Part shown: piece by piece, positions 2,753 through 54,414 of the stretch
Position numbering within the stretch: position 1 is the first letter of the stretch
Layout of the letters: every line of letters starts with the position of its first letter
IMG/VR virus record: IMGVR_UViG_3300045988_114759
Direction: 5' to 3' (one strand)
DNA from: a virus
DNA: 64,000 nt
Notes under the pieces: model-generated
What the model was told of the DNA's origin: nothing
The model's input: the letters and a program-made list of their open reading frames with translations, nothing else
Database searches by the model: none
Made by a program: the position numbers and the translations under genes

Positions 2753-5236
2753 ATGGCTATAAGTTACGACAAAAAAATCATGGAGTGCGTTCTTCGTTCA
2801 GTTATGTCCGAAGGTAATGTCGCACAAGGAAAGGCTATTAAGTCTATTTGTAAGTCACCAAAACCGCTGTTTATAACCGGTAAAGGAGGAAGTGGAAAAG
2901 CACAGCCTTTGTATGCTAAAATTTTAACGCCAGATGGTTTTAAGAATATGGGGGATATAAAGGTTGGTGATAAAGTTATGGGCGCAGATGGTAAACAACA
3001 GACTGTATTGGGTGTGTATCCACAGGGAATTAGACCTGTATATAAGGTAACTATGAATGATGGTTATTTTACATATTGCGATGAAGAGCATTTGTGGTCA
3101 TATAGATTATCCAGTCATTATGGTAAAACTCCATTTTCGAGATGCAGTACACTAAAAGAAATTATAAGTACAGGTATCAGGAAGAATGTTAAAATAAAAA
3201 ATGGTGAAAAACAGCCGTTAAGATATGAAATTCCAGTGTGCCGACCTATAGAATATGAAGAAAAGAAATTTTCTATACATCCGTATGTATTGGGAGTTTT
3301 TATAGGTGATGGGAGTTTAAATGGTAATATGGCTATTTTTTCTTGTTCTGATTCTGATGTAGAAATAAGAAATAGAGTAGAGTCATTTCTTGGAGAAGAT
3401 TTTCTATTGAGTAAAAAAAAGGAACATCCAGCCATCACATGTCCTCAATACAGTGTGATTCAAAAAAATCATACAAAAGGTGGTGGGTTTATAAATAGGA
3501 TAAAGGATTTAGGACTAAATGTTACGTCTGGGTATAAATTTATACCAGAAGAATATAAACTTGGCAGTATCGATCAGAGAATGCATTTGTTAAATGGTTT
3601 AATGGACACCGATGGAACATGCTCGAAAGAAAGAAATAGATTGACGTATTCTACTACAAGCAAGAGATTGGCTGAAGACATTGTTGATCTTGTACAGTCG
3701 TTAGGTGGAATAGCTAAGATAAATACGCTTTTTAGACCTGATAAGAAATACGTGTATGAATATACCGTAAGAATAAAAATGTACGATAATGCATTTACAT
3801 TAAAAAGAAAAAAAGAAAGATATGTTCCTAATCCGGCAAGAGTTTCAAGGTATATAGAAAGCGTGGAAAAGGTAGATGATTCTGAATGCGTATGTATAAA
3901 AGTATCAAATAAAGACGAGTTGTATATAACAGATAATTATATTGTAACTCATAATACTACTTTCCTTAAGCGTATTATACCGGCATTAAAAAATGCGGTT
4001 GTTGTAGCTCCTACAGGTGTTGCTGCTGTTAATGCAGGTGGTCAAACCATTCATTCATTTTTTAGAATAGGAATGCAGCCGTATATACCTGAAATACGAA
4101 AAGGCGCGTTTATGGATAATTGCGAATATAAATTCAACGGAGGTTCGGAAAAGATTTTACAGAATATAAAGTATCTTATCATAGACGAGATTTCTATGGT
4201 TCGCCCTGATCTTCTTGACAACGTAGCTGATATACTTCGTCATGCAAGAGGAGACAAGGACCCGTTTGGCGGCGTGAAACTTATTATGGTAGGTGATTTA
4301 TTTCAACTTCCGCCAGTAATTAAGGAGGATTTTTTTAGAGAAATATACGATACATCTTACTTCTTTAGCTCCAAGTCTCTAATGGCTTCTGGTATGGAAA
4401 TGGTTTCTTTTGAAAAAATATACCGTCAGAAAGATGAGAAGTTTATTAGTGTCCTTAATAAGGTGCGTGAAGGGCAGATGGATGATGATGTATTTGATAC
4501 AATAAACAGCAGATGTATTCAGTCTGATAATAATCAAGGATATGTTGAGATTGTAACTACCAACTCAAAAGCTACGGCTATTAACGAAATGAGAATATCA
4601 TCGTTACCAGGCTCTTTAAGAAAATTAGAAGCTGTTATAAACGGTGATTATCCTAAAGATGCTCCGGTTGAAAAAACTCTTTTCTTGAAAGAAGGATCAA
4701 GAGTTATGATAACAAGAAACGGAGGAGAGTACTTCAATGGCTCTCTTGGTACTGTATTGTCTATAAAAAGGGGGGAGATTGAAGTAGTCCTTGATAAACC
4801 GAAAGATGATGAGCATACTAAGGTTGTTATAACACCATGTTCGTTTGAGAAAGTAAAATACGTAAGAAACGGATATAAGATAGAATCTGAAGTAGTAGGA
4901 GCTATTATTCAGTATCCTATAAAAATAGGTTATTCTATCACGATTCATAAAGCCCAAGGCCTGACATTGGATGCGGCTATGATGGACGTATCTAATTCTT
5001 TTGAAACAGGACAGCTATATACGGCTCTTTCAAGAGTAAAGTCTCTTGATGGATTATATCTTCGTCAACCTATTCCTAAGACGGTAAAAACCAGCGATCA
5101 GGTGGTGATAAACTTCTATAAAAGGACTCTTGGTAATGGAGGTATTGTGAAACCGGTTCCAATGGAAGAGCTTGAAAAGTCAATGATTAATTTGTCAACC
5201 GGATCTGAAATAGATTTTGCAGAGTTTAATTTATAA
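2753..5236 (+). CDS. Pif1/RecD/Dda-like SF1 DNA helicase precursor, interrupted by an intein
   Basis: The Walker A motif GKGGSGK|T is split by a 352-aa insertion. After the insertion come the motifs APTGVAAVNAGGQTIHSFF, LIIDEISMV (Walker B), MVGDLFQLPPV and SITIHKAQGLTLD, which are typical of Pif1/RecD (AAA_30 + UvrD_C_2). The spliced product would be about 475 aa. Confidence 0.8.
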   Translation: MAISYDKKIMECVLRSVMSEGNVAQGKAIKSICKSPKPLFITGKGGSGKAQPLYAKILTPDGFKNMGDIKVGDKVMGADGKQQTVLGVYPQGIRPVYKVTMNDGYFTYCDEEHLWSYRLSSHYGKTPFSRCSTLKEIISTGIRKNVKIKNGEKQPLRYEIPVCRPIEYEEKKFSIHPYVLGVFIGDGSLNGNMAIFSCSDSDVEIRNRVESFLGEDFLLSKKKEHPAITCPQYSVIQKNHTKGGGFINRIKDLGLNVTSGYKFIPEEYKLGSIDQRMHLLNGLMDTDGTCSKERNRLTYSTTSKRLAEDIVDLVQSLGGIAKINTLFRPDKKYVYEYTVRIKMYDNAFTLKRKKERYVPNPARVSRYIESVEKVDDSECVCIKVSNKDELYITDNYIVTHNTTFLKRIIPALKNAVVVAPTGVAAVNAGGQTIHSFFRIGMQPYIPEIRKGAFMDNCEYKFNGGSEKILQNIKYLIIDEISMVRPDLLDNVADILRHARGDKDPFGGVKLIMVGDLFQLPPVIKEDFFREIYDTSYFFSSKSLMASGMEMVSFEKIYRQKDEKFISVLNKVREGQMDDDVFDTINSRCIQSDNNQGYVEIVTTNSKATAINEMRISSLPGSLRKLEAVINGDYPKDAPVEKTLFLKEGSRVMITRNGGEYFNGSLGTVLSIKRGEIEVVLDKPKDDEHTKVVITPCSFEKVKYVRNGYKIESEVVGAIIQYPIKIGYSITIHKAQGLTLDAAMMDVSNSFETGQLYTALSRVKSLDGLYLRQPIPKTVKTSDQVVINFYKRTLGNGGIVKPVPMEELEKSMINLSTGSEIDFAEFNL
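2900..3955 (+). mobile_element. intein carrying a LAGLIDADG homing endonuclease, inserted in the helicase P-loop
   Basis: The insertion starts with Ala right after GKGGSGK and ends with ...IVTHN, followed by Thr (+1). Removing it restores the GSGKT Walker A motif. It contains two LAGLIDADG blocks (LGVFIGDGSL and LLNGLMDTDGTC). A Hint-like N-terminal region reads KILTPDGFKNMGDIKVGDKV. Confidence 0.75.
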
Positions 5237-12875: not shown

Positions 12876-12955
12876 CCGGTAGTATCCCCTCAAGCTTATA
12901 CCTTGTAGAAAGGGTAGTTGGTTACACGTGGGTTCAAATCCCTCCTACCGGACCA
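12876..12955 (+). tRNA. tRNA-like gene with encoded CCA; anticodon unresolved
   Basis: Acceptor stem ccggtag/ctaccgg. T-arm gtggg-TTCAAAT-ccctc. Discriminator A plus CCA. 45 nt lie between acceptor and T-arm, 4 more than a class I tRNA. The D-arm region lacks the usual GG and no clean anticodon stem was found. Confidence 0.45.
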
Positions 12956-12956
12956 C

Positions 12957-13027
12957 TGTCCAATGGTGTAGTGGTAGCACAACAGATTTTGGTTCTGTTA
13001 GCGGAGGTTCGAATCCTCCTTGGATAA
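12957..13027 (+). tRNA. tRNA-Gln (anticodon TTG)
   Basis: Acceptor tgtccaa/ttggata, with the U1-A72 pair typical of bacterial tRNA-Gln. Anticodon stem acaga/tctgt with loop ttTTGgt. T-arm ggagg-TTCGAAT-cctcc. Confidence 0.7.
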
Positions 13028-13097
13028 CAATAAGTTTTTGTGTAAAGTGTTAATTATCTCAGTGTTTGCGGTGTGCGAACATAGCAAACATGAATCT

Positions 13098-13169
13098 GGC
13101 CCATTAGTTTAACGGATAAAACCTTTGAGTCCTAATCAAAAGTTGCCTGTTCGATTCAGGCATGGGCTA
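13098..13169 (+). tRNA. tRNA-Arg (anticodon CCT)
   Basis: Acceptor ggcccat/atgggct. D-arm gttt-aacggat-aaac. Anticodon stem tttga/tcaaa with loop gtCCTaa. Variable loop agtt. T-arm gcctg-TTCGATT-caggc. Confidence 0.75.
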
Positions 13170-13172
13170 CAT

Positions 13173-13244
13173 GGCTTGTTGGATGAGTGGTTTAGTCAGG
13201 GGTCCGCAAAACCTCGTATGGCGGTTCGATTCCGCTACAAGCCT
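13173..13244 (+). tRNA. tRNA with GCA anticodon (Cys-like) and unusual C at position 33
   Basis: Acceptor ggcttgt/acaagcc. D-loop contains GG. Anticodon stem ggggt/acctc with loop ccGCAaa. Variable loop gtat. T-arm ggcgg-TTCGATT-ccgct. C33 in place of the near-universal U33 makes the identity uncertain. Confidence 0.55.
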
Positions 13245-13261
13245 CTAAAAAAAGTAAGACA

Positions 13262-13702
13262 ATGAACTACCCAGAGCAACAAATGCTTAAGATCCTTAAT
13301 AGGGATCTGTTAAGTAATCCGATGTATGTTATTAACAATCTTCATATATATGATTGGGAATCTGACTTCCTGGCCATAACAAGATCATTGTACGCTTATG
13401 AAGTAGAGGTTAAGATGTCTAAACAAGATTTCTTTAACGACTTCAAAAAGGATAAAAAACATAAGGTTCTTAAAGACGGCATTATTAAGGTAGGTGGTGT
13501 CATAAGCTATCCTCCAAACTATTTCTACTACGCCTGTCCTCCTAATATGATTGACGTAAGTGAAGTTCCGTCTTATGCCGGGCTGATTTATGTCGATGTT
13601 AGTAAAAATAGGAAGAACGTCGTTAAAGTAGCACCTTTAATTCATAGACAGAAGTTTGATGTAGTGGGTAGGAAACTGGTGGATAAGTTTTACGATCTTT
13701 AA
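13262..13702 (+). CDS. hypothetical protein
   Basis: 146-aa ORF immediately after the tRNA cluster. Confidence 0.45.
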   Translation: MNYPEQQMLKILNRDLLSNPMYVINNLHIYDWESDFLAITRSLYAYEVEVKMSKQDFFNDFKKDKKHKVLKDGIIKVGGVISYPPNYFYYACPPNMIDVSEVPSYAGLIYVDVSKNRKNVVKVAPLIHRQKFDVVGRKLVDKFYDL

Positions 13703-13782
13703 CAAAACCCCTGCTTTTAAGCAGGGGATCAATGATTCTTTTATTCATATATGTATTTTTTAATAATTGATTCTGATACCGG

Positions 13783-14115
13783 TTGCAGAAATGCAGGGGT
13801 TCCATACGTTTGTATCCAAGAATCCCATTTGCTTTAGCGATGGGAGTATGTCAATACAATATGCTCACTTGGAAGAAAAGAGCTATTTCAAACGTGTATG
13901 CTGACCCAGCCAAGGAGAGAGAGAAAGGCGTGCGTGCCGGGGCTGAGGCTGTGAGGAAGTCGGCCTGGGATGCGTTCAGGGCGCAGTGCCCGCACATTGC
14001 TTTCCCCTATGGAAATGAATTTCCGATGTGTGACGATCACGAACAAGATCATCCCATGAGAGACTGCATTCTTCAGTGTGAAAAAGGTAGAATATTTAAA
14101 AACAAATTAAAATGA
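13783..14115 (+). CDS. hypothetical Cys/His-rich protein; the 5' end lies inside a dispersed repeat
   Basis: 110 aa. The first ~25 codons fall within the ~60-bp repeat also present, inverted, at 23.8 kb. The C-terminus is Cys/His-rich (CPHIAF...CDDHEQDHPMRDCILQC). Confidence 0.35.
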   Translation: MQKCRGSIRLYPRIPFALAMGVCQYNMLTWKKRAISNVYADPAKEREKGVRAGAEAVRKSAWDAFRAQCPHIAFPYGNEFPMCDDHEQDHPMRDCILQCEKGRIFKNKLK

Positions 14116-16378: not shown

Positions 16379-16801
16379 ATGAAGATAAACTTTTTAAGCA
16401 GTAAGGTTTATGTAGGTTCTAAGACAAAAGAAGCTAAAATCAGAAAGCTTTCTATTAGCAAAGATCGGATTATGACCATATCGGTAGATAACCTGAAATG
16501 GATGGGTATCGAAGATGCGGTTCTGATTGGTATGGAAGAAGGAGCTGAGTTTAAAGGGGTGTTGGATTCTAATTTGTATATAGCTCCTTCTAAGGTAGAA
16601 GACGAGAGATCGTTTTTATTAAATAAACAAGGTGAGAAATATAGACGTATTTACCTCCGTGATGTACTGTCTTCGCTGGGTTGGGATATCGGTGATAATA
16701 AGTATGCGGTTTATGATATTGTGAAGATTAAGGACGAAGATGGTGTGTTCTGCCTGGTTCCGAGAGAGATTAAGAAAAGCAAGTTTGAAAAAGGAGAATG
16801 A
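16379..16801 (+). CDS. hypothetical protein
   Basis: 140-aa ORF. Confidence 0.45.
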   Translation: MKINFLSSKVYVGSKTKEAKIRKLSISKDRIMTISVDNLKWMGIEDAVLIGMEEGAEFKGVLDSNLYIAPSKVEDERSFLLNKQGEKYRRIYLRDVLSSLGWDIGDNKYAVYDIVKIKDEDGVFCLVPREIKKSKFEKGE

Positions 16802-16802
16802 T

Positions 16803-17360
16803 ATGGTACAAGATATTGATATAAAATCCAAACGAATATTATTGTTTGATTTTGATGGAACGCTTATAGAAACCGCTTCTGGGAATACGTTCGCTACAGA
16901 CTTGACAGATATGAGGATTAAGATGGATGTGGTGAATAAGGCTCTTGACCTCATGTAGGAGAACGGTGTTAAGGTATTTGCTATCGTAAGCAATCAAGGA
17001 GGAGTAGAAGCTGGGTTTGTTTCTGGAGCTGATATTGAAGCTAAGATAGAATACGTACTGAGGTGCGTACATGATCTGGCGGTAAAGAGAGGCATAAGAG
17101 GCGTCTTGTATGAAAAAAGGTTGTGTTATTCAAATGACGAACAAAATCCGATGAGGAAGCCTAACACGGGCATGATTGATGATATTCTTATGAAGTGTAA
17201 AGACACGGTAATGCGCGGTATGAACTTCAGTCAACTTAAGGGATGTTCGTTGATGGTCGGGGACGCCAGTGGTCTGCCAGGTCAGTTCTCTGATTCGGAT
17301 AAGGTATGTGCTTATAATGCTGGTATTGACTATATGGATAATTACTACGTTTTTGGATAA
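16803..17360 (+). pseudogene. HAD-superfamily phosphatase interrupted by a single in-frame TAG at 16956-16958
   Basis: Motif I LFDFDGTL (DxDGT). After the TAG, the same frame continues with motif II IVSNQGG, motif III RKPNTGMI and motif IV MVGDASGL. The order and spacing resemble GmhB/PNK-type 3'-phosphatases. The ORF table splits this frame into 16740-16958 and 17106-17360. Confidence 0.6.
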
Positions 17361-17682
17361 AGATCTTGATTTAGAATATGTATTGTCCAAAGAACATACA
17401 AGTGAAGGAATAGTTATTTTAAATAATGGCTATATATATATCCTTGAAAATCCATATGGTGTTGGTCTTAATATAAAAATCACTTTAAAAGATTTTTATA
17501 AGATTGAAACCGATGATGGAAAAAATGCAACCGTAGATGATGTGCTGAATATAAGGATTGATAAAGATCGGAATTTCAATTCATATAGTGATGTTGTAAA
17601 GATAGAGGTATTAGAAGACGGTAGTATCAAATATATAAGTTTGTATCATGAAAGTAAAGAAAGCAGCGATAGTTTATCATAA
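17269..17682 (+). CDS. hypothetical protein (start uncertain)
   Basis: ORF in another frame overlapping the 3' end of the HAD gene. There is no internal Met after residue 17, and a TTG start near 17353 is possible. Confidence 0.3.
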   Translation: MVCQVSSLIRIRYVLIMLVLTIWIITTFLDKDLDLEYVLSKEHTSEGIVILNNGYIYILENPYGVGLNIKITLKDFYKIETDDGKNATVDDVLNIRIDKDRNFNSYSDVVKIEVLEDGSIKYISLYHESKESSDSLS

Positions 17683-18607
17683 ATCGGATTTAGATGGCGT
17701 TGTATCGGCAGCCATCGCAACCATGTACGAAAACAGTAAAGACAGGGATGTTATTTATATCCCGTATTCGTATGAAGATGATGTTAAGAAAGTTACCAGC
17801 AAGGTGAGTGACTTAGATGTTGTTTACGTTCTTGACGTGTCTTTTGGAGCCGATTCTAAAACGGTTTTCAAGAAGTGGCTTGATGAAGGAAAGAGCCTGA
17901 TGTGGATAGATCATCATAAGGGGATTATCGAAGATAGTAAGACATGGGGGTTCGTAGTTCCAGGGTTGAGGAGAGTCGGTACCGGTGCGTGCGCACTTGC
18001 TGCCGACCTGCTGATGGGGAAGGTGCCGGCGATCGTCCGGTGTCTGTCAGACTACGATGTGTGGAATAAAGAATCCGGTTTAGGCTGGGATACGGTAGTA
18101 GCTGTCCAGTATGCCTTGAGATCAAAAATTCGATTGAATGTGTTAATAGCATTGTCGTACTTGTATGATCACTTTAAAGAAAATATGAAAGACAATGAAA
18201 TTGATCTTATTTTTTATGATCTTGCTAAAGAAGGACGTGCTATAATTAACTACATGGCTGGTAAAAACGAAGATGAGGTAAGTAGGTGTTCGTTCGAAGC
18301 GCACGTCGATGAGGTGAAGGTTGTAGCGATGAATACCGCTGAATCAGGTTCTAAGGTATTTGATTCTCTTACACCGGACTGGTTAGACGGTAGAAAAATT
18401 AAAGCTTTGATGCCATTCTGTATCATGCCAGGTGGAAAAGTTAGGTTCTCTCTTTACAAATGCGTAGAAGACGGCGTAGATTGCTGTGAGGTAAGTAAGA
18501 GATTCGGTGGTGGAGGACATGCCGGTGCTGCTGGATTCGTTATAGACGTATCAAGCGACCAATTTAAGGACTTCCTTGAAAACCACAAACTTACTTCAAT
18601 TCAATAA
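17648..18607 (+). CDS. DHH-DHHA1 phosphoesterase (NrnA-like nanoRNase / pAp phosphatase family)
   Basis: N-terminal YHKSDLDGVVSAA (DHH motif I). MWIDHHKG (DHH motif). C-terminal GGGGHAGAAGF (the GGGH signature of DHHA1). Confidence 0.8.
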   Translation: MKVKKAAIVYHKSDLDGVVSAAIATMYENSKDRDVIYIPYSYEDDVKKVTSKVSDLDVVYVLDVSFGADSKTVFKKWLDEGKSLMWIDHHKGIIEDSKTWGFVVPGLRRVGTGACALAADLLMGKVPAIVRCLSDYDVWNKESGLGWDTVVAVQYALRSKIRLNVLIALSYLYDHFKENMKDNEIDLIFYDLAKEGRAIINYMAGKNEDEVSRCSFEAHVDEVKVVAMNTAESGSKVFDSLTPDWLDGRKIKALMPFCIMPGGKVRFSLYKCVEDGVDCCEVSKRFGGGGHAGAAGFVIDVSSDQFKDFLENHKLTSIQ

Positions 18608-18679: not shown

Positions 18680-19045
18680 GGGTGTGATGATGATAAAATG
18701 AGAAATAGGTTTGTGCGATGGGAGAGAAAGACAGAAATAGGTTTGTGTGATGTGGGAGAAAGACAGAAATAGGTTTGTGTGATGTGGGAGAAAGACAGAA
18801 ATGGGTTTGTGTGATGGGAGAGAAAGACAGAAATGGGTTTGTGTGATGGGAGAGAGGGGCAGAAATAGGTTTGTGTGATGGGAGAGAGAAAGACAGAAAT
18901 AGGTTTGTGTGATGGGAGAGAGGGGGTGTGATGATGATAAAATGAGAAATAGGTTTGTGCGATGGGAGAAAGACAGAAATAGGTTTGTGTGATGGGGGAG
19001 AGGGGGGGGGGAAATAGGTTTGTGTGATGTGGGAGAGGGGGTACC
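18680..19045. repeat. tandem direct repeat array (~10 imperfect copies of a ~32-35-bp unit GAAATAGGTTTGTGTGATGGGAGAGAAAGACA); iteron-like
   Basis: Counted directly in the sequence. Copies vary by gtg/gcg and by gggagag length. The array lies in a ~900-bp non-coding region followed by AT-rich palindromes. Confidence 0.85.
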
Positions 19046-20047: not shown

Positions 20048-20544
20048 CAAGGCACGGAGAGCGCCGTTAAGCTCTCCAAAGGTTTGACGCGTACCGTTAA
20101 ACGTGTCTGTACGCCGTTGTCAGTGGGTGCACGTCCCGCGTATGCTTTAGACTGAAGCTGACAAAATAGAGAGTTATTTTACATATTGGAGATAGATATA
20201 CCATTGCCCTTGCCGTTGGCAATTAAAGGGCCGGTATTACTGCATGGACTATCCGAATAGGTATGGTTTATGTTAGGTATGTGAGTATAGTTTAGAAAAT
20301 ATACCGTTGTACGAGGTTTGTCTCCGTTCGGGAACGTGTCTTACTTGCCTACACGTAAAATAGGACAAGGCTGTAGATTAAATTACAGGGTATGAGCATG
20401 TAACCTATCATGTAGGAGCATCTTATATCAAAACGCAAGGACACAATCGCCTTTATTTGTGGCTAAATTGTGTAGCAGACGGAAAATATAATAACAACAT
20501 AGTACGGGCCTGTACGCAAGAACTACGTACTAATTACGGGCTGT

Positions 20545-20608
20545 TGGTTGTAGCATAAAATCTCTATAGGATAGGAATGCGTGTCCGGTTCGATTCCGGA
20601 GCAACCTC
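20545..20608 (+). other. tRNA-3'-half-like element (T-arm tccgg-TTCGATT-ccgga plus acceptor-like stem tggttgt/gcaacct), too short to be a full tRNA
   Basis: Only 32 nt separate the acceptor 5' strand and the T-stem, where about 41 are needed. The element lies immediately upstream of the small ORF at 20632. Confidence 0.4.
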
Positions 20609-23766: not shown

Positions 23767-24003
23767 AGGTATGCGCTCTTTGTATTTGTATAATGCTTGA
23801 CATACTCCCATCGCTAAAGCAAACGGGATTCTTGGATACAAACGTACGGAACCCCCGGTTTTACAATCGTTGGAATCACCCGCACTTTCCAACTCGGAAA
23901 TGCCCTTCCGAGGTCGCAAGACAGGGCAAATATAATGTTTAATTATCATCTGACACATAAATGGGATCAGTATTACCATTAAATAACATAAAACAATAAT
24001 AAT

Positions 24004-28911: not shown

Positions 28912-29187
28912 ATGACAGCAGCAGAAAAATTGCGTATGGAAATAGCGCAAGAAGCACCATTTAGTAAGGACGAATTTATTAGTAAAATCTCTCGTCTAAT
29001 TAAGGCGTATGGATATGCAAGTTTTATTTGCGACAAGCATATTCGAGAAACCGATGTATCGCCTAACGGTAACACGATTCGTATGGTACATGAACAGATA
29101 GCAATTGATTTTGCTCGTTATGAGGGTTTCTTAGTATCATACAAACATAACAGTTATGGTGTTAGATATATAGTATTCACTCTTTGA
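28912..29187 (+). CDS. hypothetical protein
   Basis: 91 aa. The 3' end abuts the third copy of the dispersed repeat. Confidence 0.4.
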   Translation: MTAAEKLRMEIAQEAPFSKDEFISKISRLIKAYGYASFICDKHIRETDVSPNGNTIRMVHEQIAIDFARYEGFLVSYKHNSYGVRYIVFTL

Positions 29188-29373
29188 CATACTCCCATAG
29201 CTAAAGCAAACGGGATTAAAAGAATGTAGCAGGGAAGAGGCATTTGACATCATTCAAGGGTGGGCTAAAGAGTTTGCAGAGGAATATGGGAATTGTGATT
29301 TTGATGGATCATACTATGATGAAATAGATGCATTTATCGAAGAAAAATTAAGAACTATTTAAAATATAAAGAC

Positions 29374-35908: not shown

Positions 35909-36131
35909 TGTTGTTTCCCGTGTAGCACTTGCGACGGCAATTGTATTATTGGTAGTAGCGGGTGCTACTTTGTTGATAGTGATTAAGACCGAAGAAGTAC
36001 CGAGATGGTTAATGAACTTACCATATACGTTGTCTTTAACGGCGGTATCTTTTTCAATTATATCACTTGTATCGAAATATAAAGAGTGGAAAAGAAATTG
36101 TACGTCTGCGAAAGATGCGGACGAAAAGTGA
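35901..36131 (+). CDS. small membrane protein (2 TM helices)
   Basis: 76 aa with hydrophobic stretches VALATAIVLLVVAGATLLIVI and LSLTAVSFSIISLV. Confidence 0.35.
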   Translation: MSDVVSRVALATAIVLLVVAGATLLIVIKTEEVPRWLMNLPYTLSLTAVSFSIISLVSKYKEWKRNCTSAKDADEK

Positions 36132-36598
36132 TGATAAGAAGTCATGGCTTATGCCAGGCTTGCAGGAGCAAAGAGTTGACTCCGAAGAAAAAAGACAGAA
36201 TTACATCCATTAAAAACAACAGCAAGAAGAAAAAGTTAGAGAGCCCGGATTTATCCGGGTTTTTTCGTCTTATGCTGGAGGAGTTGAATAGTATTCGAAT
36301 GTCTATGACCGGTAAGGCTATTCATTTTCCTACAGTATGTAACGTATGTCACATACTTCCAAAAAGGATATATAAGTCGGTTGCCACTTGCAGAGATAAT
36401 ATAGTTTTTCTACATGAATCGGAGCATACGGTATTCGACATGTATCTTGACAGGATGGAATTTGATAAACTTGAAACAGAATTTCCTTTTGTGTGGAAGT
36501 ATGCGGTAAAGAAGGTACTGGATATGGAAAACAGGGGAATGATTAAAGAAAGAGGTAGGTTGATTATTGAAATAATTGACAGGTATAACCCCAAATAG
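36086..36598 (+). CDS. zinc-ribbon protein
   Basis: 170 aa. The N-terminus reads CERCGRK...HGLCQACRS (CxxC...CxxC). Later Cys/His residues follow. Confidence 0.4.
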   Translation: MEKKLYVCERCGRKVMIRSHGLCQACRSKELTPKKKDRITSIKNNSKKKKLESPDLSGFFRLMLEELNSIRMSMTGKAIHFPTVCNVCHILPKRIYKSVATCRDNIVFLHESEHTVFDMYLDRMEFDKLETEFPFVWKYAVKKVLDMENRGMIKERGRLIIEIIDRYNPK

Positions 36599-36945
36599 TA
36601 TTAAACCAATATAATTCTATTATAAAAGTTTAATACATCTCTTTCAGAGATCGGGTTATTAGCCTAAGTGTTGAAACAAACACTACGTTATTTGAGAATA
36701 TATAGTTACCTACGGATGTTTGCCCAAGTCTGTAGCTCTAAGGATGGTGATTAAACAGGAGTAGTGTATTTGACGAAACAGTGTTGCCATTATATAAAAC
36801 CTCTTATAACATTGGCGATGGGTACTAACAGGATGAAATATTCCTGACTTATCCCTAACGGGATTTACATCTACCAAGGAGACCGAAAGGTCTCCGAGGG
36901 GATGTATTAAAACAGATGAGTAGTTTTAAATATATTTAATAGAAT

Positions 36946-43207: not shown

Positions 43208-43921
43208 ATGTACATCAATTTCAGACAACTTGCAGCATCAGACATGACTCCTAATGATCTGGCTAATCTTCTTGCTATAAGACAGAAGGATACGGTTATG
43301 ATCGAAGCCATGCCGGAAGAAGATGCTGGGAGGTATATAGAGCTTGGCCTGGTTGAGAAATTAAAATCAGGCGTGATGAGATTGACCAACAAAGGAACGT
43401 CTTTTGTGAATTATATAGAGACGCCGGAGATGACAGACGAGGTTCTGGAAACGTTGAAGATTATGATAGGAATGTACGAATCATATTCAAAAGACATAGG
43501 TGCCAGCAGAAAAGAAGCAGAATCCAGATTGTGTTGGTTTATGGGTAACACCTCATTCAAGAAAGAGGTCATACTTCAGGTAACGGAATCTTATATAGCA
43601 GAGTCAGGAGATTATACAATGAGCTTATGTAACTTCATATGGAAACCGCCTTCTCAGGCTTTTTCAGTCCATATGAACCTTAAAAATTCAAAGCTCTTTG
43701 ACTTAATAGCTGAAAAATTTAAGATCGCTACCGAACCTTATTTGGAGTCTAAGAAGAATAAGGAAATGGATTGGTTGTTTGCCGTATCTAAATTGCCTAC
43801 GCCGCCAGCTAAAGGCAATCCGGATTATTTGTTTACCGGAAGTTCTGAAACAGACAAAGAGCGATTGAAAAACATAAAAACGTATTTATTTAACAAAATT
43901 AGAAAGCAATGGAAAAAGTAA
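43208..43921 (+). CDS. hypothetical protein
   Basis: 237 aa. Confidence 0.45.
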   Translation: MYINFRQLAASDMTPNDLANLLAIRQKDTVMIEAMPEEDAGRYIELGLVEKLKSGVMRLTNKGTSFVNYIETPEMTDEVLETLKIMIGMYESYSKDIGASRKEAESRLCWFMGNTSFKKEVILQVTESYIAESGDYTMSLCNFIWKPPSQAFSVHMNLKNSKLFDLIAEKFKIATEPYLESKKNKEMDWLFAVSKLPTPPAKGNPDYLFTGSSETDKERLKNIKTYLFNKIRKQWKK

Positions 43922-44150
43922 GAATCAGAAAGATAATAGAGGATATAATTATTACTCAGTTTCTTAATTCGGAAATAGATATAGTTCATGAAGAAGATGT
44001 GACGTTTAAAGAACTTGGATTAGATTCTATTGATCAAATTGAACTGGAAATGATGGTGGAACAAAAAATTCAATATTGTTATTATTGATTATGATATGGA
44101 GACCATCAAAGATATGACTGATCTTGTTTACAAAATAATAACAGAAGGAT

Positions 44151-44645
44151 ATGGGAAGTGACATAATTTTATGCATGGCTTTAATAGCGTCATTTGCTTT
44201 CGTTATACAGTTTTTGTTGTCGATATTAGGATCTGATCTGGATACGGATATTGATATTGATGATGCTTCTGATTTAAGTATGTCTTTGTCGGACATCATA
44301 TCATTCAAGGGCATAACACATTTTATTCTTGGATATAGCTGGACTACCTACTTTTCGGGTTCCCATTTAGTAGGGGTTGTGATAGGGTCGTTTTTCTTTA
44401 TCGTTTTGTTTTACGTATATAAGTTACTTTTTAAGTTAAAGCAAGAAATGGTGTACGAATGTCCGGAAGATTTAAATGGCAGAGAGGTGGAGATAGTGTT
44501 TAGATCAGGGAAGAATCATTATATGGTAAATATTTCGAAAAATGGAAGACAGGAGCAAATGAGAGTAAGATGCTTGTCTGGAAAAACTTACAAAAACGGT
44601 GACAAGGTGAATATAAAATACGAAGAAGGAGAATTAATTATCTAA
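44151..44645 (+). CDS. NfeD-like membrane protein (YqiJ/YuaF family)
   Basis: 164 aa. The N-terminal half has hydrophobic helices (ILCMALIASFAFVIQFLLSIL and VVIGSFFFIVLFYV). The C-terminal ~70 aa has a short beta-rich OB-like tail (EVEIVFRSGKNHYMVNI...GDKVNIKYEEGELII), as in NfeD. Sits directly upstream of the flotillin gene. Confidence 0.6.
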   Translation: MGSDIILCMALIASFAFVIQFLLSILGSDLDTDIDIDDASDLSMSLSDIISFKGITHFILGYSWTTYFSGSHLVGVVIGSFFFIVLFYVYKLLFKLKQEMVYECPEDLNGREVEIVFRSGKNHYMVNISKNGRQEQMRVRCLSGKTYKNGDKVNIKYEEGELII

Positions 44646-53932: not shown

Positions 53933-54133
53933 ATGGAAAAGAATTTAAAACTCGTATGTCCGAAATGTGGCACCCCTCACCAGCCTCATTCTCCGCACAC
54001 GATGGATGCAGATGGATTTGAAAGGTGTGAGATAAGAACTATCATGGAAGACAAGGGATGGTGCTACGAATGCTCTTTTTTTGGCAAAATATGTACGACA
54101 AACACAAAGACGATCCGGGATGGGTTAGGATAG
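53933..54133 (+). CDS. zinc-ribbon small protein
   Basis: 66 aa with CPKCG...C...CYEC. Confidence 0.35.
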   Translation: MEKNLKLVCPKCGTPHQPHSPHTMDADGFERCEIRTIMEDKGWCYECSFFGKICTTNTKTIRDGLG

Positions 54134-54414
54134 ACGGTGAAAGCTGGGTGCTTAAGCCTATGGTGGAAAACGTGCCAAGAGGATGGAATGGCCTTGGATG
54201 TGGTGGAAGAAAAATGTATGTCAATATCGAAGGGAAAGGCGTTGTTGTATCAAATAACTGCTGGTGCCAAGGTGATGTTTCGGACGCATTTAAGGAACTG
54301 ATGCCTGATAATGCTACTTGGGCTACGAAGGAGGAATTTGACAAAGCTCCTGTAGTAGGATATATTATAGAAGGTATTGGTTTAGTTTTCACAGATAGGG
54401 TACATTTTTTATAA
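54058..54414 (+). CDS. hypothetical protein
   Basis: 118 aa, overlapping the previous ORF in another frame. One of the two may be spurious. Confidence 0.3.
   Translation: MVLRMLFFWQNMYDKHKDDPGWVRIDGESWVLKPMVENVPRGWNGLGCGGRKMYVNIEGKGVVVSNNCWCQGDVSDAFKELMPDNATWATKEEFDKAPVVGYIIEGIGLVFTDRVHFL

Follow-up and report, generated by a model that had tools for sequence, protein, structure and literature searches.

Amber null alleles that pass into pseudogene decay are a known and ordinary kind of feature in phage populations. Their marks are a stop created by a single base change, a predominance of intact orthologues, secondary lesions, and intact neighbouring genes. In-frame TAG codons are also described in Crassvirales and other gut phages that use genetic code 15, in which TAG encodes Gln; such phages carry tens to hundreds of TAGs, in late genes (Yutin 2021, PMC7886860; Peters 2022, PMC9523058; Borges 2021, bioRxiv 10.1101/2021.08.26.457843). 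Stop-codon reassignment occurs mostly in the late genes of the beta, delta, and zeta crAss-like groups (PMC7886860). In programmed read-through, exemplified by the Q-beta A1 protein and MuLV gag-pol, coding continues after an in-frame stop, the stop is conserved, and both products are functional. Here, we analyzed a 64,000-nt stretch of virus DNA (IMG/VR record IMGVR_UViG_3300045988_114759), further referred to as the window, in which a gene of the PNKP-type HAD 3′-phosphatases is interrupted by TAG. We conclude, with a probability of about 0.88, that an accessory gene of a standard-code epsilon crAss-like gut phage carries a segregating nonsense allele here and has since been decaying as a pseudogene. 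The locus has all the marks of the amber null alleles listed above and shows no essential difference from them; what is notable is that several recombinant backgrounds carry the same nonsense site and that many human gut metagenomes contain it.

The frame that starts with ATG at 16803 (+ strand) was translated up to the TAA at 17358-17360. It reads MVQDIDIKSKRILLFDFDGTL…ALDLM, TAG, ENGVKVFAIVSNQ…MRKPNTGM…MVGDASG…YYVFG, TAA, and the TAG at 16956-16958 (codon 52) is its sole internal stop. The 51 codons located 5′ of the TAG (16803-16955) encode the N-terminal part of the PNK3P/HAD phosphatase with HAD motif I (D16-T20, FDFDGT, of the DxDGT type, 16848-16862). The remaining HAD domain (16959-17360) continues in the unchanged frame and contains motif II (S63 in IVSNQ), motif III (K119 in RKP, 17157-17159), and motif IV (GD, G153-D154, with D154 at 17262-17264); only its tail, NYYVFG, is out of frame. 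The motifs DxDGT, S/T, K, and GD are therefore present in this order and in one frame. With the stop read as Gln, residues 12-178 matched Pfam PF08645 (PNK3P) with an E-value of 2.9e-21 (76.3 bits, cut-off 22). The initial annotation had reported a HAD phosphatase gene in which a single in-frame TAG separates motif I from motifs II-IV, all four being in one frame, and the translation and the Pfam search confirm this. It had also taken the gene to be otherwise intact and to end at 17360, which has to be corrected on both points. The proteins of relatives have 290-292 aa, which places the true 3′ end at 17682, and the gene is damaged a second time by the insertion of one A at 17340/17341 (codon 180), 385 nt 3′ of the TAG. 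The insertion was found by alignment with the relatives L002, L013, and L015 (A in relatives, AA in the window). The window reads GGATAATTACT where the relatives have GGAT-ATTACT, and the last ~105 codons (17341-17682) are moved to the +1 frame. These codons specify a C-terminal domain of ~105 aa (ITTFLDKDLDLEYVLSKEH...SDSLS), which is fused in frame to the phosphatase in intact homologues and has no family match in Pfam or PHROG. The full gene, 16803-17682, is not an uninterrupted ORF, as it is broken by the TAG at codon 52 and by the +1 frameshift at codon 180. Programmed +1 frameshifting at GGA-TAA-A was also considered and was rejected, since the A insertion is missing from the 99.5%-identical intact relatives L013 and L015 and from all other aligned relatives. 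Upstream lies an ORF for a 140-aa protein (16379-16801, +), which served as an allele-neutral anchor for fetching relatives. The downstream gene (17648-18607, +) overlaps the end of the phosphatase gene; it encodes an intact NrnA-like DHH/DHHA1 phosphoesterase (Pfam; PHROG 4771) that is 93% identical to its crAssE-Sib orthologue.

The nearest phage record is crAssE-Sib (OR575929; spelled csAssE-Sib in GenBank), a 151-kb genome from the human gut that belongs to an epsilon crAss-like phage (PMC11054128). Its orthologue of the phosphatase gene is a single 290-aa CDS with GAG (Glu) at the position of the TAG. A protein search revealed 576 homologues, the closest of which are 292-aa single proteins that are 95% identical and have Gln at this site; hundreds of homologues are uninterrupted proteins of 290-292 aa with the same residue. 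At the nucleotide level, L002, which was the closest intact relative first fetched, has CAG at the site. Since CAG is found in the closest intact relatives, the TAG corresponds to a single C-to-T transition at 16956. In a comparison with PDB, the intact relative P0001 matched the phosphatase domain of mammalian PNKP (1yj5, 3zvl) with an E-value of 2.4e-6. The similarity to the PNKP-type enzymes (PF08645) is significant, and the motifs DxDGT, SNQ, RKP, and GD are shared in order, whereas the window gene lacks the kinase domain, possesses the ~105-aa C-terminal domain without a family match, and is disrupted. Judging from the sequence, the intact protein is predicted to be a PNKP-type 3′-phosphatase without a kinase domain, fused to an uncharacterised domain and encoded beside an NrnA-like DHH phosphoesterase. 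The protein may plausibly act in the processing of nucleic-acid ends or in nucleotide salvage, and the phosphatase half of T4 Pnk/PseT may be regarded as a functional analogue of the intact form. The window copy is a member of the PNK3P family by descent and a pseudogene in its present state.

The use of TAG in the phage was analyzed by tblastn of the 132 annotated crAssE-Sib CDS against the window, where about 100 of them have orthologues. The initial annotation had proposed counting in-frame TAGs in conserved genes, and this count gave the phosphatase TAG as the only one within a strong alignment. Other stop-bearing alignments involved short, weakly similar, or mixed-stop hypothetical ORFs. 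On the coding strand, just two TAGs part open stretches of at least 45 codons, namely those at 16956 and 54131. The latter is out of frame and lies just 3′ of a homopolymer frameshift, which leaves the TAG at 16956 as the sole unexplained candidate. For 77 conserved genes the alignment extends as far as the C-terminus, and 12 of them have TAG as their terminator at the stop position of the crAssE-Sib orthologue, including a 2148-aa structural gene that has no in-frame TAG inside. At orthologous gene ends we counted nine TAG/TAG pairs and five positions at which TAG is exchanged with TAA or TGA. Treating TAG, TGA, or TAA as a sense codon in stop-to-stop ORF statistics did not merge long ORFs and brought no gain. 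The 132 CDS of crAssE-Sib are terminated by TAA (75), TGA (39), and TAG (18) and have no internal stops, and the large late genes of this phage are uninterrupted under the standard code; TAG serves as a terminator among its late genes as well. The phage in the window uses the standard genetic code, and TAG is a genuine terminator there.

A tRNA cluster was located with ARAGORN and Rfam at 12876-13245 (+). It consists of a tRNA-Met relic, followed by tRNA-Gln (TTG), tRNA-Arg (CCT), and tRNA-Cys (GCA), the last three with good scores of 45.7-65.8 bits. The tRNA-Gln, with the UUG anticodon, occupies 12957-13028, about 4 kb 5′ of the phosphatase gene. A tRNA with the CUA anticodon was found neither in the 64-kb window (ARAGORN, Rfam) nor in the full 151-kb genome of crAssE-Sib (ARAGORN), which encodes six tRNAs (Met, Gln, Arg, Cys, Tyr, and Lys). 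The absence of a CTA anticodon from the cluster at 12.9-13.2 kb was thus noted correctly in the initial annotation, and the wider search that it had suggested gave none in the window or in crAssE-Sib. A suppressor tRNA in the ~87 kb outside the window is unlikely, as both the terminator usage of TAG and the crAssE-Sib genome speak against it. Two of the four tRNAs had been called atypical; this applies to one of them, the relic at 12876-12952 (+), and not to the other three. The relic scores 28.3 bits (Rfam gathering score 29), has UAU in the anticodon loop, and folds no better than shuffled sequences (z = −1.09). A normal tRNA-Met (CAT) is found at the same place in crAssE-Sib and L002. Only the T-arm and the 3′ acceptor strand are shared with it, the 5′ two-thirds being replaced, and the new 7-bp acceptor stem is perfect. 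The relic may be a functional, odd tRNA, possibly Ile-UAU.

The exact 51-aa product was found on at least 21 contigs (39 index blocks) that come from at least 10 samples and various assemblers. Such a product requires a stop at codon 52, so its recurrence counts against sequencing error. Four contigs carry the haplotype with both the TAG and the A insertion, among them ENA ERZ919572 k127_22793 and NCBI ULXC01038391.1 (GCA_900524485.1), the latter being 99.975% identical to the window (one base in 4013 differs). The 69-aa product specific for the frameshift was detected on four contigs; the exact 121-aa product of the downstream ORF of the window is not on record. The contigs that share the lesions are not identical to the window and have 1-2 SNPs within the gene. 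Both lesions thus recur in independent assemblies, although the A insertion is less independently supported than the TAG, as ERZ919572 and GCA_900524485.1 may share one source sample. The TAG is certainly real, and the A insertion is very probably real.

To determine the frequency of the allele, IMG/VR was scanned in an allele-neutral way, with a 37-mer containing Y at the site. Seventy-six contigs were found, of which 74 have CAG and two have TAG. TAG is a minority allele with a frequency of ~3%. For 67 of the CAG copies the gene was read at full length: 37 encode the 292-aa protein, 27 have HAD-only products of 186-210 aa, their C-terminal domain being replaced or deleted, and three are truncated early. 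The 186-aa HAD-only form, with a 323-aa DHH variant after it, accounts for 16 of the 74 CAG copies. Downstream of 16956, 48 sites show all four gametes with this position, and for every TAG haplotype there is a CAG haplotype that is almost identical. The TAG is found on several haplotype backgrounds, through either recombination or repeated C-to-T changes; in phages as mosaic as these, we infer that recombination is the more probable of the two. A methylation hotspot behind such recurrent mutation was considered and set aside; the orthologue of the crAssE-Sib C5-methyltransferase is absent from the window.

The TAG copies differ from one another in their further lesions. In window-type copies, the lesion is the additional A at codon 180. 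L020 (ENA ERZ27246705 k141_4705) has a deletion by which PNK3P codon ~73 is fused to the final ~20 codons of the DHH gene, at a GFV motif that both genes contain. In L024, the frame is shifted near codon 57 and 11 nt are deleted, and in L026, L066, and L067 an A-run near codon 105 carries a −1 shift. The gene therefore shows both a premature stop relative to intact orthologues and independent further lesions. ORF-breaking extra lesions were present in 6 of 12 TAG contigs and in 3 of 67 CAG copies (Fisher p = 2e-4), or in 4 of 9 versus 3 of 67 when haplotypes were collapsed (p = 3e-3); this comparison mixes the exact-product look-up with the 37-mer scan, the contigs are phylogenetically non-independent, and the enrichment is supportive of decay but not rigorous. 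The copies L019, L021, L022, L023, and L027/28 have no additional frameshift. L021 ends at 190 aa with its C-terminal domain replaced, L027/28 are 186-aa HAD-only forms, and L019, L022, L023, and L027/28 represent four TAG haplotypes in which the frame is otherwise intact. The presence of such haplotypes on several backgrounds could mean that the allele is tolerated or mildly useful and not simply dead.

These observations fit the following course of events for the nonsense allele. A C-to-T transition would have turned Gln52 (CAG) into an amber stop, and translation would end after 51 residues. Given the catalytic mechanism of HAD enzymes, a fragment with motif I (the nucleophile) alone would not form an active enzyme, so the activity would be lost. 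The dead gene would then evolve neutrally and decay. In the lineage of the window, the 1-nt insertion at codon 180 would have uncoupled the C-terminal domain, and other TAG lineages would have acquired different frameshifts or deletions. Recombination, or possibly recurrent mutation, would have put the minority allele on several haplotype backgrounds.

The initial annotation had left the choice among sequencing error, pseudogene, and recoding; the pseudogene stands, while the other two are not supported. If the sequence were in error, the true one would have CAG and no extra A. The combination of a substitution and a 1-nt indel has the typical shape of consensus errors, and two other genes of the window differ from crAssE-Sib in homopolymer length. 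Even so, we consider an error very improbable. The identical stop recurs across the contigs, samples, and assemblers described above and on two IMG/VR contigs in addition, both lesions were seen again in non-identical ENA and NCBI contigs, and the homopolymer frameshift in the acyl carrier protein gene is likewise reproduced by other assemblies. Reassignment of TAG to Gln under code 15, by means of a suppressor tRNA gene located beyond the window, has in its favour that the TAG stands in place of a codon for Gln, the residue that code 15 gives to TAG, that the phage belongs to Crassvirales, in which recoding is common (PMC7886860, PMC9523058), and that the window represents 64 kb of about 150 kb. 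The locus resembles code 15 phages in just these respects, a TAG at a Gln position in a crAss-like phage. Unlike them, it has one TAG, and the accessory gene that holds it is part of the early/replication block, while late genes are the main targets of recoding (PMC7886860). The features expected of code 15, many in-frame TAGs, avoidance of TAG as a terminator, and a CUA suppressor tRNA, were all missing from the window, where about 100 conserved genes hold this lone in-frame TAG and 12 of 77, with the 2148-aa structural gene among them, end in TAG. The complete crAssE-Sib genome, with no suppressor tRNA and with late genes in the standard code, points the same way, as does CAG in 74 of the 76 related IMG/VR contigs. 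Conserved genes without an internal TAG and full-length homologues with a sense codon are what the initial annotation had named as evidence against recoding. We regard code 15 in this phage as extremely improbable.

Leaky read-through would make the allele a strong attenuator and not a null, with a near-cognate Gln-tRNA restoring the wild-type Gln52. The wild-type residue at the site is indeed Gln, the phage encodes the tRNA-Gln (UUG) at 12957-13028, and some TAG haplotypes, on several backgrounds, are otherwise intact. The window copy would in this case yield a 185-aa HAD-only protein, which resembles the natural 186-aa form. In bacteria, read-through by near-cognate decoding usually stays far below 1%. 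The TAG copies are enriched in additional frameshifts within the HAD domain, which argues against selection on the sequence 3′ of the TAG; moreover, the stop is rare (2 of 76) and not conserved, and 12 normal genes depend on TAG to terminate. Leaky read-through seems to us very unlikely. A related idea, that the amber codon is tolerated as a leaky attenuator and represents incipient recoding, in which tRNA-Gln (UUG) or a host Gln-tRNA occasionally reads UAG as Gln, is highly unlikely; if it were true, the occurrence of one CAG-to-TAG change on several backgrounds in many human gut samples would be due to selection or to a mutational hotspot. The locus shares with programmed read-through an in-frame stop after which coding continues, but the stop is not conserved among homologues (74 CAG and two TAG in IMG/VR, GAG in crAssE-Sib); 97% of homologous loci lack it, and it leaves as the short product a fragment of 51 aa. 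A functional split gene, in which the 51-aa peptide, the remaining HAD part, and the C-terminal domain would be made separately through re-initiation and assemble into an active enzyme, is suggested by the downstream ORFs given by gene callers (one of 69 aa starting at M117, another of 121 aa starting at 17317). Between the TAG and the TTG at 17106 there is no start codon, so that residues 53-101, including motif II, would be lost. Motif I would also be on one chain and motifs III-IV on another, and the pattern of breaks differs among the TAG lineages and is not conserved. This possibility is barely credible. The preferred reading remains the nonsense allele with subsequent pseudogene decay.

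As this case shows, a lone in-frame TAG in a crAss-like phage is not to be read as evidence for code 15. In comparison with code 15 phages, the TAG of the window is a normal terminator without a suppressor tRNA and, within the phosphatase gene, a 3% minority allele. Terminator usage at orthologous gene ends, the count of in-frame stops across orthologues, and the allele frequency in relatives together make a recipe by which such cases can be told from code 15. For this genome, the standard code and a phosphatase pseudogene at 16803-17682 should be annotated. In epsilon crAss-like phages, truncation, deletion, or fusion has repeatedly affected the PNK3P gene, its C-terminal domain, and the DHH neighbour, so at least in some hosts the phage can dispense with the module. 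The structure of the PNK3P/DHH module varies among relatives, as exemplified by L020, L007-L011, L016, and P0062, the last of which is a 486-aa in-frame PNK3P-DHH fusion.

Several other features of the window were recorded. The acyl carrier protein gene (43909-44158, +) has A6 at about 44060-44067, where crAssE-Sib has A5, and this shifts the frame of the 83-aa gene. The truncated 59-aa form was also found in ENA ERZ28596253 scaffold_37 and in five similar places, and other relatives have the intact 83-aa form; the frameshift is another natural null allele. In the ORF region 53933-54399 (+), a run of T7 at about 54075-54085, T5 in crAssE-Sib, shifts the frame of a 162-aa Cys-rich ORF. The region 20250-20560 (+) is the counterpart of a 95-aa hypothetical CDS of crAssE-Sib. 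It contains three stops (TAG and TGA) and a frameshift, and it is either a decayed gene or a sign that the crAssE-Sib annotation is spurious.

An MmcB-like gene, which in crAssE-Sib forms a single 230-aa CDS, is divided in the window into two parts (13262-13702 and 13783-14115) by a structured insertion of 161 nt at 13694-13854 (+; fold z = −2.5). L013 lacks the insertion as well, and L014 has an identical one. The last 59 nt of the insertion are found again in the inverted orientation at 23797-23855 and, in part, at 29184-29217, which suggests a small element of a repeated or mobile kind. An Rfam HEARO RNA (RF02033), a member of the omega-RNA family associated with IscB/HNH endonucleases, was found at 36585-36829 (+) with 94.8 bits (gathering score 83). 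It begins at the 3′ end of a NinG/HNH-like 170-aa ORF (36086-36598), and no IscB-sized ORF is adjacent to it. The ~350 nt that carry HEARO are absent from the matching region of crAssE-Sib, where no HEARO hit was obtained. The RNA may be a solo or remnant omega-RNA element.

The PIF1/RecD-like helicase ORF (2753-5236, +) encodes 827 aa, compared with 475 aa in crAssE-Sib. An insert of ~290 extra aa at about 3082-3956 matches Hint and LAGLIDADG homing-endonuclease domains, indicating a probable intein. The N-terminal part of the insert resembles a segment of the large terminase of crAssE-Sib, which may carry a related intein. Just 3′ of the DHH gene, a tandem array at 18701-18921 consists of 6.8 copies of a 32-nt unit with 91% matches, and weaker repeats extend past it to about 19200. 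The contigs L014 and L018 end inside the array, so it breaks short-read assemblies. Its repeats may be iterons.
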